Origin: an uncultured Clostridia bacterium
GTDB lineage: Bacteria; Bacillota; Clostridia; Saccharofermentanales; Saccharofermentanaceae
Length of the DNA: 64,000 nucleotides
Direction of reading: 5' to 3'
Assembly (NCBI GenBank): GCA_946537885.1
Contig: CAMNGC010000001.1
Coordinates: 57,897 to 121,896 of the forward strand
A program made the position numbers and the translations under genes. The notes below the pieces were generated by a model. The model was not told where the DNA came from. It was given only the letters and a program-made list of their open reading frames with translations, and searched no databases. This document shows, piece by piece, positions 1,366-59,686 of the stretch. Within the stretch, counting starts at the first letter, position 1, and every line of letters begins with the position of its first letter.

Positions 1366-1934
1366 GCTTCTTCACGGAAAGCTTGGGATTTCTCATGTTG
1401 TATAGGGGGTTGCTGATCGAAAAAGCCGGCCCTGAGGTATCGGTCAAGGCTGCCGTCAACAGATTTGCTGTCTGGAGGCCTTTTCTGTTGACGCGCCGCC
1501 CCGCCGTCAACAGATTTGCCGTCTGAAGGTCATTTCTGTTGACGCAGTCGCCCCCGCCGTCAACAGATTTGCTGTCTGGAGGTCGTTTCTGTTGACGCAT
1601 CCGCTCCTGCTGTCAACAGATTTGCTGTCTGGAGGTCATTTCTGTTGACGCAGCCGCCCCCGCTGTCAACAGATTTGTCGTCTGAGGGCCGTTTCTGTTG
1701 ACGCACCGCCCTCGCCGTCAACAGATTTGCTGTCTGAAGGTCATTTCTGTTGACGCGCCGCCCTCGCCGTCAACAGATTTGTGGTCTGAAGGTCATTTCT
1801 GTTGACGCAACCGCCCCCGCTGTCAATAGATTTGTCGTCTCTGTGGTCATGAATTTTAAGCATAACCTTAAGCAACATGCTTAAGCCTTTGCTTAAAGCA
1901 TTCACGCTATATCCCAAGCTTTCCGTGAAGAACC
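1366..1934. mobile_element. MITE-like non-autonomous element with palindromic array cargo (copy 1)
   Basis: Perfect 22 bp terminal inverted repeat TTCTTCACGGAAAGCTTGGGAT (1368-1389 / 1911-1932), AAAAAA on both flanks, no transposase; ends are shared with 50574-51034. Confidence 0.8.
1452..1841. repeat. Tandem array of 7.5 palindromic units, 51-53 bp period
   Basis: GTCAACAGA-N20-TCTGTTGAC plus a 13-15 nt GC-rich linker; units start at 1455, 1506, 1559, 1612, 1665, 1717, 1769 and 1822 (partial). Confidence 0.95.
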
Positions 1935-1967
1935 AAAAAACGACACAGTAAACGATTTACTGTGTCG
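1935..1967 (-). terminator. Terminator of the arg operon
   Basis: CGACACAGTAAA-CGA-TTTACTGTGTCG hairpin; A6 on the + strand gives a U6 tract on the minus strand, downstream of the GNAT gene. Confidence 0.8.
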
Positions 1968-2015
1968 AATAATTGTCGATCTTTGTTCCGAACTACCCGA
2001 TAAGATGAAGAGCCT

Positions 2016-13520: not shown

Positions 13521-14294
13521 ATGAGTGACGATCTCTATGACATCCTGGCCGACCATTACGACATCCTGCAGGAAGGGATCGATAATGAGAAATGGGCCGC
13601 ATATATAGATAAGCTCGTTAAGCTCTACTGCGAGGCAAGCGGGAGCGGCAGGGACGGTAAGCTTTTGTTGTGTGATCTGGGTTGCGGTACCGGCAGGACG
13701 ACAGTCGAGTTGGCGAGGCGCGGTTATGATGCCATCGGCATTGATCTGTCCGTTAATATGCTGTCTGAGGCGCAGTTTAATTCCGATGAAGCGGGCGTTG
13801 ATGTTTTCTGGGTCAGCGGTGATATCACGGATCTACAATTAGCCGGCGAGGTCGATGTCTTTACTGCCCTGACCGACACCTTGAATCATCTTTATGAGCC
13901 GGGACAGATCGAGAAAGTGATCTGCGCGGCATCTTCCTACATGGCTCCCGGAGCGGTTTTTATCGCGGATATAGGCACCCTTGATCATTATCGAAAAACT
14001 CTCGGCGATAATGTATTCTACGAGGACTACGAGGACCTGACACTTCTCTGGCAGAACAGCTGGGACGGCGAGGTCAGCACTTCCGAGATAACCGTTTTCG
14101 AGACTGAGGATGGCGAGAACTACCGAAGATCCGATACTGAGGCCCACGAGCGATACCATTCGCCCGAGGCGATAAAAGAATTGGCAGAGCGTCACGGCCT
14201 GACGCTTGAGGCGGTACTCGGGGAACTGTCCGATGATCCCCCGACAGATAAAGACGAGAGATATTTTATAGTGTTGAAGAAGGCGGTAAGCTGA
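13521..14294 (+). CDS. Class I SAM-dependent methyltransferase
   Basis: DLGCGTG motif I, GIDLS..ML. Confidence 0.88.
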   Translation: MSDDLYDILADHYDILQEGIDNEKWAAYIDKLVKLYCEASGSGRDGKLLLCDLGCGTGRTTVELARRGYDAIGIDLSVNMLSEAQFNSDEAGVDVFWVSGDITDLQLAGEVDVFTALTDTLNHLYEPGQIEKVICAASSYMAPGAVFIADIGTLDHYRKTLGDNVFYEDYEDLTLLWQNSWDGEVSTSEITVFETEDGENYRRSDTEAHERYHSPEAIKELAERHGLTLEAVLGELSDDPPTDKDERYFIVLKKAVS

Positions 14295-20385: not shown

Positions 20386-22089
20386 ACGAACAGCAAGAAT
20401 CACTACAAGTTACTTCATTCCTACGAAGAATACGATCAGTATCTCATGATGGATGAGATAAGCGGCGAGCTGTGTCTCAAAAAATATTTGGAGCATCATG
20501 AAGATGCTGTTTACGAGTATATCAGGGAGCACCGATCTGCTCATATCCCGGCAGTGTTTGACTATGGAGTTGACGATAGAGGATTCTACGTCATAGAAGA
20601 ATATATTAAAGGCAAGACACTGGATCGATATATGGAAGATGTGGATGAGGATCCCGAAGAACGCGAGAGGATAATATACGAGATTCTAGATGCAGTCGAA
20701 TTCCTTCATTTGGCCCCTTCACCCATAATTCATCGCGACCTCAAGAGTGATAACATCTTGATCGATAAGAATGGTAAGGTATATCTCATTGATTATGATG
20801 CAGCCAAGGTGTTTAAAAGCGGCGAGACTAAGGACACTGAACTCATTGGCACCATCGGCATAGCGGCGCCTGAACAGTATGGCTTCTCTCAGTCGGATCA
20901 AAGAACTGATATTTATGCATTGGGGCTTCTGATCAAGGATATGTTCCCGAAAAACGCAAAGTTCCAACGAGTGGCGGATAAGGCGATGAAAATGGACCCG
21001 GAGCAAAGATATTCCAGCATAGGGGAATTAAGAAGAGCAATGAAGTCCGGGCGTAGGGCTAGCGTGTATATCAGACGATGGGCACCTTTGATATCTGTGA
21101 CCCTTGCGGCTCTTATATTGATCTTTATTTTGCAGTCCCGACATGTTAATAATGAACAGAAAAAGGCCGACCTGATCATCGATGAGGGCGAGACAGTTAT
21201 TGAGGTGACCACCGGCGAGATGATGGGAACGACAAACGTTTTCGAAAATGATGAAAGCGGTGTCTTCGACATGACTTTGGATACAACAGGAACTTTAAGG
21301 GAATCTGCTGAACTACCGATGACGACAGGGAGTGTGACTGAACTGACGGGGTTAGAACGTGACAATCTGTCGGTGAGCGACTCATCGGAGACTAGCCCAA
21401 TTTCCCGGAATGATGCTTACGAGACACAGACTATCCCATCTGAATCGAGAATTGTGAATGCTTATGAAGAACAGACTGATGCAACGACAATTGAGACTGC
21501 CGGACAAACTGAAACACCAACCCGGGTTCCGGCGACTACAACTCCCAGACCTGCTACGGCAACTCCTACCCGTGTTCCTGCGGCCGCAACTCCCAGACCT
21601 GCTACGGCAACTCCTACCCGTGTTCCGACTACTTCACCCTCCAACGTTGTGACAGCAACTGCGACCCCTAAGCCTGTAACAGTTACACCGACTGTTTCGA
21701 ATGAATATGTCTATATTGTTCCGACGGAGGCTCCACACTATACACCAACGCTCTCTCCTACTCCTACCCCGTACGCAGGCGGACCTACCGCTCAAAGTGG
21801 GACCCTTACTGCCGGTTTTTGGGATGAATCTGCCGGCAATTTGACGATTATCAGTGGAGATGGGAATCCAATCTATTCCGCAACTGTCAATTTCCCTGAA
21901 GGGTATACAATTAATATAAATCAGAACGAATGTGATTACAGATATACGCTCTCTATAAAATCTCCAAACTCGTTCACATTAACATACAATTATATCGATT
22001 ATCCTGTCGAATACCTCTGTGTATACTATTACTCGTGGACACCGGCGAAACAACCCGATACGATTACTGTCACTTTTTCAGGCGAATAG
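20386..22089 (+). CDS. Membrane Ser/Thr protein kinase (paralog 2)
   Basis: Same kinase motifs as paralog 1; homology extends at least 20 codons upstream of the first ATG (20446) and the start is placed tentatively at ACG 20386. Confidence 0.88.
   Translation, partial: TNSKNHYKLLHSYEEYDQYLMMDEISGELCLKKYLEHHEDAVYEYIREHRSAHIPAVFDYGVDDRGFYVIEEYIKGKTLDRYMEDVDEDPEERERIIYEILDAVEFLHLAPSPIIHRDLKSDNILIDKNGKVYLIDYDAAKVFKSGETKDTELIGTIGIAAPEQYGFSQSDQRTDIYALGLLIKDMFPKNAKFQRVADKAMKMDPEQRYSSIGELRRAMKSGRRASVYIRRWAPLISVTLAALILIFILQSRHVNNEQKKADLIIDEGETVIEVTTGEMMGTTNVFENDESGVFDMTLDTTGTLRESAELPMTTGSVTELTGLERDNLSVSDSSETSPISRNDAYETQTIPSESRIVNAYEEQTDATTIETAGQTETPTRVPATTTPRPATATPTRVPAAATPRPATATPTRVPTTSPSNVVTATATPKPVTVTPTVSNEYVYIVPTEAPHYTPTLSPTPTPYAGGPTAQSGTLTAGFWDESAGNLTIISGDGNPIYSATVNFPEGYTININQNECDYRYTLSIKSPNSFTLTYNYIDYPVEYLCVYYYSWTPAKQPDTITVTFSGE
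21520..21626 (+). repeat. 48 bp coding tandem repeat (TRVPA..TPRPATATP)
   Basis: Units start at 21520, 21568 and 21616 (partial). Confidence 0.85.
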
Positions 22090-50573: not shown

Positions 50574-51034
50574 GGTTCTTCGCGGAAAGCTTGGGATTTC
50601 TCATCTATAGGAGATTGCTGATCGAAAAAGTTCTTCTCCGGCATCGGGTAATGCTATTTTTTGCAATCTCGAAAATAGCATTACAAAATAGCGGCAAGAG
50701 TAATGCCAAAAAGCCCTTTGGCTTGATTTGGCATTACAGGATCACGAGATTGGTAATGCTGATCTACGGAAATTGAGAAATAGCATTATCAAATTGATAA
50801 AAAATGTAATGCTAATCAGCAACTATGCCTTAAATAGCATTATTGGCCGACTGAAAATGTAATGCTAATCAGCAGGTTTGGCATAAATAGCATTATCAGG
50901 CAAGCAATAATGTAATGCAAAAAATGAGGAATGCCAACAAAAGCATTACCGAGGAAGCATAGGATTCATTGTGCGGGAATGATATAGAGCGTCAGGCATC
51001 GAGCACCTTCCTCCCAAGTTTTCCGCGAAGAACC
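50574..51034. mobile_element. MITE-like element with palindromic array cargo (copy 2)
   Basis: 23 bp terminal inverted repeat GGTTCTTCGCGGAAAGCTTGGGA (50574-50596) / TCCCAAGTTTTCCGCGAAGAACC (51012-51034), 1 mismatch; T-rich flanks; left end homologous to 1366-1443. Confidence 0.8.
50648..50949. repeat. Array of 6 palindromic units with variable spacers, 52-53 bp period
   Basis: GTAATGC-N23/24-GCATTAY-N15/16; units start at 50648, 50700, 50753, 50806, 50859 and 50912. Confidence 0.93.
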
Positions 51035-58193: not shown

Positions 58194-58302
58194 GTAATGC
58201 TTTTTTCGAGAATAATCGAAAAAGCATTACCTGAAAGAAAAGTAATGCCAAATCCTTATTGCCTCAAAAATAGCATTACTGATCTGATGTTAGATGTAAT
58301 GT
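58194..58302. repeat. Truncated GTAATGC/GCATTAC palindromic array (2.5 units)
   Basis: Units at 58194, 58242 and 58296 (partial); same arms and 23-24 nt loop as 50648-50949. Confidence 0.88.
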
Positions 58303-58310
58303 CAAAATAG

Positions 58311-58571
58311 TGTCCCTTAAAACTAGTTGATGGAGGAATAGTTCATCCTGACTTTACCGTGCTTGATATTAAAACGCGTAAGGAAAAGTATTGGGAGCAC
58401 TTCGGGATGATGGGAAATTCCGAATATTCAGCAAATGCCATTCACAAGCTCAATAGATACTATGCTTCCGGACTGGACCCTGGAAATAGATTATATATGA
58501 CATTTGAATGCGAAAAGGAGCCGTTGACACCACAGACAATCAACACGGTGATTGATTCGATGGGATTATGA
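58311..58571 (+). pseudogene. 5'-truncated PD-(D/E)XK-like (Vsr/DUF559-like) nuclease gene fragment
   Basis: Reading frame CPLKLVDGGIVHPDFTVLDIKTRKEKYWEHFGMMGNSEY...KLNRY...LYMTFE; PDF..YWEH.G resembles a restriction-endonuclease-fold active site; in-frame TAG immediately upstream. Confidence 0.6.
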
Positions 58572-58572
58572 A

Positions 58573-58795
58573 CTCGCAACCCTTGCAAGCAAGTTGCTCG
58601 CCATGCAATATCGTCGCTTCGCTCGCAACCCTTGCAAGCAAGTTGCTCGCTTGTGCAATATCGTCGCTTCGCTCCGATAAAGCACACTGCGCTCGCAACC
58701 CTTGCAAGCAAGTTGCTCGCTTGTGCAATATCGTCGCTTCGCTCCGATAAAGCACACTGCGCTCGCAACCCTTGCAAGCAAGTTGCTCGCTTGTG
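58573..58795. repeat. REP-like tandem repeat, 70 bp unit
   Basis: CTCGCAACCCTTGCAAGCAAGTTGCTCGC... at 58573 (49 bp short unit), 58622, 58692 and 58762 (partial); internal hairpins. Confidence 0.92.
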
Positions 58796-58804
58796 TGCTA
58801 TAAT
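58794..58804 (+). promoter_or_regulatory. Extended -10 promoter, probably leaderless transcript
   Basis: TGTGCTATAAT followed after 6 nt by ATG 58811; no SD. Confidence 0.65.
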
Positions 58805-58810
58805 TCCCGC

Positions 58811-59686
58811 ATGGGCTCAAGTTCAGTAAAAGTTATAATTGCGGCGCATAAGAAGTGCGAGCTGCCGAGAGATGAGATCTATCTCCCGGTGTTTGTCGGC
58901 GCGGCTCTTAAGCGCAGCGGAGCGTTGGAGGCGTCGGAGGCGTCGGAGGCGTCGGGGGCGTCGGAGGCGAGTGGGATCCCTGAGGGCTTCACGCCTGATG
59001 ACACCGGCGAGAATATTTCGGTCAAGAACCCGTATTATTGTGAGCTGACAGGGCTTTACTGGGCTTGGAAGAATCTGCGTGATGACTATATCGGTTTGGT
59101 CCATTATCGCAGATTTCTTGGCAGACGCGGCAGTAAAAAGGATCCGTATGCCGGGGTGTTGACGAAGAAGCTTTGGGACAAGGAGCTAGCAGCGAATCCG
59201 GATATAAAAGTGATAGTGCCGCAAAAGCGTAATTATTACATTGAGACGCTTGGATCACATTATGCACATACTCACGATGCCACACATTTGGTGACGACGC
59301 GAGCTATAATAGCAGAACAGCAGCCGGATTACCTGAACTCTTTTGACCGTGTTATCAGGCAGAGAAGCGGACACATGTTCAATATGATGATCATGAAGCG
59401 TGATATGCTTGATAATTACTGTAATTGGCTCTTCCCCATATTGGATGAGCTCGTAAAACGCACGGATATAAGCGGCTTATCGGCATTTGATGCAAGATTT
59501 CCGGGAAGAATCGCTGAGATATTGTTGAATGTGTGGTTGGACTTTAACGCGGATATCGGTATTATTAGTAGGCGTAGCATTGTCTCGATGAGCTTTTTCG
59601 AGGCAGGAAGGGTGAACTGGCTTAAGAAAGGGACAAGTTTTCTGAGTGCTAAGTTCACCGGGAAAAGGTATAAGGGTAGCTTTTGA
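58811..59686 (+). CDS. DUF4422 family polysaccharide biosynthesis protein (putative glycosyltransferase)
   Basis: IIAAHK, DDTGENIS.KNPYYCELT.LYWAWKN, IGLVHYRR, FNM.IM motifs. Confidence 0.85.
   Translation: MGSSSVKVIIAAHKKCELPRDEIYLPVFVGAALKRSGALEASEASEASGASEASGIPEGFTPDDTGENISVKNPYYCELTGLYWAWKNLRDDYIGLVHYRRFLGRRGSKKDPYAGVLTKKLWDKELAANPDIKVIVPQKRNYYIETLGSHYAHTHDATHLVTTRAIIAEQQPDYLNSFDRVIRQRSGHMFNMMIMKRDMLDNYCNWLFPILDELVKRTDISGLSAFDARFPGRIAEILLNVWLDFNADIGIISRRSIVSMSFFEAGRVNWLKKGTSFLSAKFTGKRYKGSF
58922..58969 (+). repeat. 9 bp coding tandem repeat (GCGTCGGAG) x5
   Basis: Encodes ALE-ASE-ASE-ASG-ASE inside the DUF4422 gene. Confidence 0.9.

Follow-up and report, generated by a model that had tools for sequence, protein, structure and literature searches.

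The window analysed here, a stretch of DNA of 64,000 nucleotides, contains two array-bearing elements, element 1 (1366..1934, unstranded) and element 2 (50574..51034, unstranded), both of which are almost certainly ISL3 MITEs. On the reading that we favour, though with considerable reserve, these MITEs carry mosaics of helically phased palindrome arrays, and the arrays stem from double-stranded DNA sites of predicted dimeric PD-(D/E)XK nucleases. The MITE is an ordinary kind of element with unusual cargo, and the value of the finding lies in the nuclease-array system behind that cargo. The genome of the window, designated G000, comprises 2.07 Mb with 46.8% GC and is 87.6% complete, and the window is matched by sequencing runs from sheep, cattle and goat gut; C-numbers denote contigs, L-numbers loci outside G000, and G124 is a sister species.

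Element 1 is 569 bp long, contains no gene and is flanked by a GHMP-kinase gene (361-1353), which is likely ispE, and by a GNAT gene on the minus strand (2016-2552). Its left TIR (1366..1389, plus strand) and its right TIR (1911..1934, minus strand) both resemble the left end (IRL) of autonomous ISL3; the perfect inverted arms span 22 bp (1368-1389/1911-1932), and 23 of 24 positions match over the full ends. End module A (1390..1443, plus strand), the usual partner of a GTAATGC array, here ends in a GGTATCGG microhomology that joins it to a GTCAACAGA segment of the type seen at C3:74581. The GTCAACAGA array itself (1452..1834, unstranded) consists of seven 38-bp palindromes plus a half unit, each of the form GTCAACAGA-N20-TCTGTTGAC, with linkers of 13-15 bp and periods of 51, 53, 53, 53, 52, 52 and 53 bp, and the right interior (1840..1910, unstranded) is made up of a fused ACCACAGA half-arm, a CTTAAGC module and end module B. 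Six consecutive A flank the element on both sides (1360-1365 and 1935-1940), and directly outside the right TIR lies a single unit resembling an 83-bp AAACGACA array family (1938..1978, unstranded).

Element 2, of 461 bp and with end modules A and C, sits between an SPFH gene and a nicotinate phosphoribosyltransferase gene. Between its 23-bp TIRs, which are 96% complementary, a GTAATGC array (50648..50949, unstranded) holds six GTAATGC...GCATTAY palindromes of 37-38 bp with diverged loops, periods of 52, 53, 53, 53 and 53 bp and linkers of 15-16 bp. The left ends of the two elements are common up to GG(T/C)ATCGG, with 87.9% agreement over the first 58 bp of their alignment, and inside the TIR their right ends are unrelated modules (B versus C). 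The original prediction of 22-23-bp TIRs with a common left end of about 75 bp is thereby borne out, and the different arrays that it described after GGYATCGG, with palindromes of 37-38 bp, linkers of 13-16 bp and periods of 51-53 bp, were measured in both elements. At up to four mismatches the TIR has 37 matches in G000 and none in a shuffled genome, so it is not a product of chance. The 8 bp flanking it on the outside are 79% AT in this genome of 46.8% GC, in agreement with the AT-rich targets that had been anticipated.

The further TIR-bounded copies sought in the genome and its relatives do exist: G000 has 12 paired copies of 253-781 bp, none with a transposase gene, and the TIR is present in 22 of 143 family genomes and at 24 metagenome loci. 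A transposase with the same TIRs was likewise found. L055 and L060 are complete ISL3 elements of 1454-1457 bp with an identical 23-bp left end and a 450-aa transposase carrying PF01610 (E 7e-56 and 6e-60) and PF13542, and several TIR loci outside the window run on into a 450-aa reading frame. Both ends of the MITEs are like the left end of this ISL3 and unlike its right end. The G000 assembly, at 87.6% completeness, gave no match to the ISL3 transposase; since contig C18 terminates in the left end of the autonomous element together with a start codon, the gene is likely present but unassembled. The MITEs are likely moved in trans by the ISL3 transposase. On the same contig, one flank occurs twice (C18:36166 and C18:36803), once empty and once leading into the autonomous ISL3 left end, as at L051.

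ISL3 elements generate target duplications of about 8 bp. Duplications of 8 bp were found at L055, L058 and C17 and one of 9 bp at L030; among the paired G000 copies only one in 12 has an exact 8-bp duplication, both window copies are bordered by degenerate A/T runs, and at the L058 site in G000 only a 9-bp remnant is left. Contigs of two studies (runs X1 and X3) join 50563/50564 to 51037/51038 and so represent an empty allele of element 2, the insertion having added a net 9 bp on top of the element. In G124 neither window site is occupied, and the orthologous gap at element 1 measures 61 bp and lacks TIR and array; this comparison covered about 785 kb of G124, in which 4 of the 33 G000 sites and 3 of the 14 G124 arrays had syntenic pairs. 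The search for empty sites was thus successful for element 2 and, between species, for both elements, but none of the four runs inspected showed an empty allele of element 1 within the species. An autonomous ISL3 with the same end, 12 mosaic copies and the empty allele together uphold the idea of a non-autonomous ISL3-type vehicle with exchangeable cargo.

The mosaic nature of that cargo is seen in the 12 paired copies, which combine end modules A, B, C, D, E and G with GTCAACAGA, GTAATGC, ACCACAGA, TACCAACTGA, TTCCCGG and CTTAAGC array modules in many orders. End A leads into a GTAATGC array in 9 of 10 copies, and element 1, the exception, is the recombinant. Its GGTATCGG aligns with GGTACCGG of the C3:74581 copy, the two sequences agreeing from there on, and at its right junction a GTCAACAGA loop passes into a ACCACAGA arm. 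The C25 copy, read by eye, consists of one element nested in another, with a duplication bordering the inner one. The junctions of element 1 and this nested pair support an origin of the mosaics through nesting and fusion at microhomologies.

One could suppose that the MITE itself selects the array geometry, so as, for instance, to juxtapose its ends, and that the link to nuclease genes described below is incidental. All 12 paired copies do contain array modules, mostly with a period of 52-54 bp, and at non-autonomous ISL3-TIR loci outside G000 an array, with several different arms, lies inside the end in 8 of 17 cases and outside it in 0 of 17. We nevertheless give this explanation next to no credence, because identical arms and periods are also seen at gene-linked loci that lack TIRs, the copies differ freely in length (253-781 bp) and in module content, and the autonomous ISL3 elements L055 and L060 carry no array. 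Arrays without TIRs are found at 7 of 12 GTCAACAGA loci and in G000 families with periods of 54, 60-61, 71 and 83 bp. The conserved geometry stressed in the original prediction is therefore real in both elements, but it is a property of the array source and not of the vehicle.

ISL3 is not the only vehicle. G124 contains IS3-ended MITEs (C5:34569-35527, C5:54506 and C1:145768-146652) with both ends alike and the 3' end of the transposase retained; these carry GGTAACG and GACAAC arrays together, and two complete copies show 3-bp duplications. Array capture by both ISL3 and IS3 ends suggests that the vehicle is interchangeable and that the arrays are the recurring part. Targeting of arrays by ISL3 was considered and is unsupported, an arm being present in 2 of 37 outer flanks compared with 2.6% of random 100-mers. 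Other repeats and insertions were noted along the way. At C4:39634-39905 of G124, an ACCACA array stands in place of about 320 bp of a gene whose G000 counterpart is intact, and no IS ends were found there. On C11 of G000, past a TGTCTAC array and a site resembling a TIR, there is a near-perfect long tandem repeat containing GC-rich hairpins (about 21500-21900, minus strand from 22283), and similar hairpins lie near 13800 of G124 C5. Two repeats of the window are in-frame coding repeats, one of 48-bp period at 21513-21627 (ORF 20446-22089) and one of 9-bp period at 58918-58969 (ORF 58772-59686, DUF4422).

The MITE cargo very probably derives from arrays linked to nuclease genes. In G000, a GTCAACAGA array with the same arm as element 1 lies 72 bp downstream of an intact gene for a 299-aa nuclease-fold protein (C12:35825-36721); the G124 orthologue, of 285 aa and 65% identical, is likewise followed by a GTCAACAGA array, whose 20/15-nt spacers are wholly different from those of G000. 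The window itself contains a TIR-free GTAATGC array of two palindromes (58194..58279, unstranded), likely a remnant of the gene-linked source of that family. Directly downstream of it is a 3' fragment (about 85 aa) of a nuclease-fold gene (58311..58568, plus strand), which has lost its 5' two thirds and matches the family with E 4e-18 (family HMM, E 2e-26). No intact cognate gene was found for GTAATGC, a pattern that occurs in one of 143 genomes (G000), the nearest proteins being at most 49% identical, nor did one emerge for the ACCACAGA, TACCAACTGA, TTCCCGG or CTTAAGC modules of G000. A distant family member at C11:27398 of G000 has an 83-bp array upstream. Directly after the broken gene, 58573-58795 of the window hold a palindromic repeat with a CTTGCAAGCAAG core, near-identical copies and periods of 49 and 70 bp, possibly a further repeat family at that spot.

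The linkage extends well beyond this genome. We took 90 of about 150 best-scoring homologue loci, at least 635 further loci lying beyond these and the fragment at 58311, the distant C10 match and some contig-end rows being set aside, and counted an array where at least four alternating inverted arms lay no more than 500 bp from the gene. An adjacent array was detected at 61 of the 90 loci; among controls, none of the 90 shuffled flank pairs had one, and 8 of 150 randomly chosen ORFs of G000 did. The same detector found none at the remaining 29. Five further homologue loci all had arrays, and 19 viral loci with the nuclease domain only (18 in proteins of 689-785 aa) had none.

Upstream arrays prevail (48 of the 61, many of them 10-60 bp from the start), 14 are downstream and one locus has both. 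Together with the up to 16 diverged matches per genome, this placement could be taken to mean that the arrays are operators or titration (sponge) sites restraining a toxic nuclease of an addiction or abortive-infection module, with dispersal and MITE capture as neutral accidents. Such a role would be compatible with binding to double-stranded DNA, and the nuclease domain matches the PADLOC candidate PDC-S68 in all 24 members compared; this match, however, is limited to the C-terminal 120 residues of 1200-aa models. The 14 downstream arrays speak against it, no partner gene was seen beside the nuclease genes, and repeated capture by two IS families is not explained by such a role itself. We consider it improbable, and hold to arrays that serve the nuclease as sites and are later captured.

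The 61 arrays fall into 47 arm clusters, and the share of pairs that agree in at least eight arm bases is 0-4% where protein identity is below 40% and reaches 100% where it exceeds 80%. Arm sequence tracks protein kinship, and array side and period are clade traits. Recent transposition of a gene-plus-array cassette found no support: among the 10 groups examined, close homologues have mostly the same flanks, and because they occupy the same locus even in different species, the nuclease genes appear to be resident and the cassette not recently mobile. We also considered homing of arrays with co-conversion of the flanks, prompted by the tig-clpX array tract, which is 96-100% identical between G000 and G124. 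Such tracts are common anyway, 129 of 1780 aligned 500-bp pieces (23 tracts, about 7%) being at least 95% identical against a mode of about 72-77%, and homing was rejected for that reason; the two species exchange DNA frequently and recently.

The median periods of the linked arrays are 51-53 bp (24 arrays), 62-64 bp (3), 72-75 bp (33) and 82 bp (1), corresponding to 5-8 helical turns, and further loci have periods of 83-84 and 94 bp. The mean phase is 0.02 bp at 10.5 bp per turn, a statistic that is about as high at 10.7-11 bp; as the periods take mostly two clade-level values, homologue loci are not independent in this respect, and departures within arrays fall within 2 bp of a whole turn in only 5 of 10 cases. 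Within G000, array periods of 53/64, 54, 60-61, 71 and 83 bp occur besides that of about 53 bp, so that the fixed period of about 53 bp first proposed gives way to one quantised at 5-8 turns. The accompanying argument that the geometry speaks against slippage had to be abandoned for the MITEs: within their copies unit-wise duplication alone keeps the period, and these copies are therefore not themselves evidence of selection. Among the gene-linked arrays many spacers are only 20-50% alike within one array.

As to whether the arrays act as DNA or RNA, only eight of 202 arm-pair deviations are compensated, a strand bias of G-U pairs is absent (44 versus 36), and Rfam gave no match to the arrays at the gathering score. 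Almost never compensated, the arm changes argue for double-stranded sites over hairpin RNAs, and together with the phased periods they make protein binding to duplex DNA the better reading; the arrays are probably double-stranded DNA protein sites. Of the two roles originally proposed, the protein scaffold is thus the one retained, whereas the hairpin RNA found no support. Transcription of the arrays into unit-length or guide RNAs for the neighbouring nuclease, in a CRISPR- or TIGR-like manner, would suit the constant arms and variable 20/15-nt spacers of the gene-linked arrays, and strong RNA folds are obtained for both elements (z about -10), as would be expected of any palindrome array. Besides the lack of compensation, strand bias and Rfam match, however, linkers that vary by steps of about 10 bp, arrays on either side of the gene and near-identical spacers in the window copies make guide RNAs a very improbable explanation.

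The arrays might instead be single-stranded hairpin substrates, REP- or Ssn-like, that the nuclease cuts and spreads, with phasing as a by-product. A vertically inherited nuclease gene beside its cognate palindromes, accompanied by dispersed gene-free copies, is the pattern described for RAYT-REP and Ssn-SRM (PMC3733652, PMC11893778). Units with shorter spacers also show slight internal complementarity (0.349 versus 0.292), but longer spacers show the opposite trend (0.287 versus 0.324). Hairpins would need neither loops of about 20 nt nor whole-turn periods, the low rate of compensation applies here too, and the protein is neither HUH nor GIY-YIG, with no Y1 transposase match in G000. We therefore regard single-stranded substrates as unlikely and continue with double-stranded sites.

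The protein family occurs in 131 of 143 genomes and forms at least 2611 clusters, its members being two-domain proteins of about 260-300 aa. It lacks a real Pfam match (24 members) and any match in NCBIfam, and PDB sequences yielded no significant match; Foldseek with the protein model returned nothing at E<=0.001, and the Atlas clusters of the family are unnamed, the nearest named one, DUF6788, accounting for 14% of members. The model (pLDDT 85.5) comprises a coiled coil with a three-stranded sheet, followed by a C-terminal domain (about 165-285) whose best fold match is the I-Bth0305I catalytic domain (Z 8.6, rmsd 2.9, 90 residues aligned), ahead of TnsA (Z 8.4, rmsd 3.4, 114 aligned) and Bax1 (Z 8.0), scores that are modest given the tool's stated background of 7-8. 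E182, D213, E228 and H229 are invariant across the family, which is predicted to have a PD-(D/E)XK nuclease fold. An arm-type DNA-binding fold for the N-terminal domain was sought and dismissed, its best structural match (Z 4.2) being unclear. A homodimer is also predicted: the model scores 0.55 against 0.13 for the best control, runs agree on at least 88% of contacts at pLDDT of at least 81, and the mark applied was attained for 20 of 30 solved homodimers and for 1 of 23 single chains. A dimer with two-fold symmetry is a good fit to inverted arms. On viral contigs (L253-L271), proteins of 690-790 aa without arrays terminate in this nuclease domain, which also matches the end of PDC-S68 models. 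Downstream of a truncated ISL3 at L050 is a 580-aa protein whose N-terminus, by eye, is like the coiled-coil/LPxG start of the family and is fused to another domain.

We propose that each predicted dimer would bind its own pair of 8-11-bp arms about 28-30 bp apart and that successive dimers would be aligned along the same face of the helix, an arrangement that would account for periods of 5-8 turns combined with freely diverging spacers. Binding or cutting may render the arrays recombinogenic, so that pieces are copied elsewhere, and pieces might then become enclosed by IS ends and joined to one another at arm microhomologies; these are the least certain steps, and that cutting by the nuclease drives the dispersal and mosaicism of the arrays is a guess that we put forward as possible. 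Inside the gene-less, ISL3-ended MITE, likely moved in trans by the ISL3 transposase, the array would be mostly a passenger that expands by whole units. More tentatively still, the family may represent an undescribed and widespread class of nuclease-repeat systems in gut Clostridia, in which thousands of diverged predicted dimers, each with an arm of 8-11 bp to itself, phase on 5-8-turn duplex arrays, cut or remodel them, and thereby provide self-spreading, recombinogenic cargo for repeated capture by IS families. If so, arrays and proteins together would form a natural library of protein-DNA specificity pairs.

Apart from this wider reading, a family with no real Pfam or NCBIfam match gains a testable partner sequence beside each linked gene, and with dozens of arm-protein pairs a recognition code becomes directly testable, which could lead to novel DNA binders or nucleases with sequence specificity. 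Ends from two IS families convert the predicted binding sites of another system into mobile mosaic repeats, and such capture may be a route to BOX- or BIME-like repeats. A literature search, thin on subscription journals and made without supplements, yielded no description of the nuclease-array pairing.

The C-terminal domain shares its fold and conserved acidic and His residues with I-Bth0305I, TnsA and Vsr/Bax1, but the N-terminal coiled coil and three-stranded sheet are without clear match, and we know of none of these proteins beside phased arm arrays. With REP/REPIN/BIME-RAYT systems, the present one has in common that a nuclease-type gene, resident and inherited vertically, lies next to palindromic repeats of its own, that copies without the gene are scattered between genes, and that repeat types form mosaics (PMC3733652). 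It differs in its predicted PD-(D/E)XK fold as opposed to HUH Y1, in arrays without an unpaired GTAG/CGTC tag, and in loops of about 20 nt compared with 4-5 in the CGTC class (PMC3733652). Here CGTC is paired with GACG and most arms have neither tag; the array also lies on one side of the gene only, and its phasing points to duplex DNA. No PF01797 match was found in G000 (87.6% complete), and the adjacent gene has no such Pfam match. The Ssn-SRM/NTS systems are similar in pairing nucleases and repeats with their own sequence specificity, linkage being 71% there and 61 of 90 loci here (PMC11893778). Ssn, however, is described there as a 94-aa, single-domain, monomeric GIY-YIG enzyme that cuts single-stranded hairpins (PMC11893778), whereas the present family has about 265 aa, two domains, a predicted dimeric state and phased tandem arrays, and none of the 24 members compared has a GIY-YIG Pfam match. 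As for the vehicle, streptococcal BOX elements have the structure boxA-boxB(n)-boxC (PMC3049150), and they and the mosaic TIME elements are non-autonomous, with TIRs common to a resident IS, a modular interior, variable numbers of tandem units, several end types and nested repeats (PMC3049150, PMC4133298). The elements described here differ in having ISL3 ends that are both IRL-like, helically quantised periods, and at least five interchangeable array types, two of them traced to a separate nuclease-linked source. By analogy with what these sources describe, the vehicle appears to work like BOX-type modular MITEs, and the system behind its cargo appears to work like RAYT-REP or Ssn-SRM while being a member of neither.
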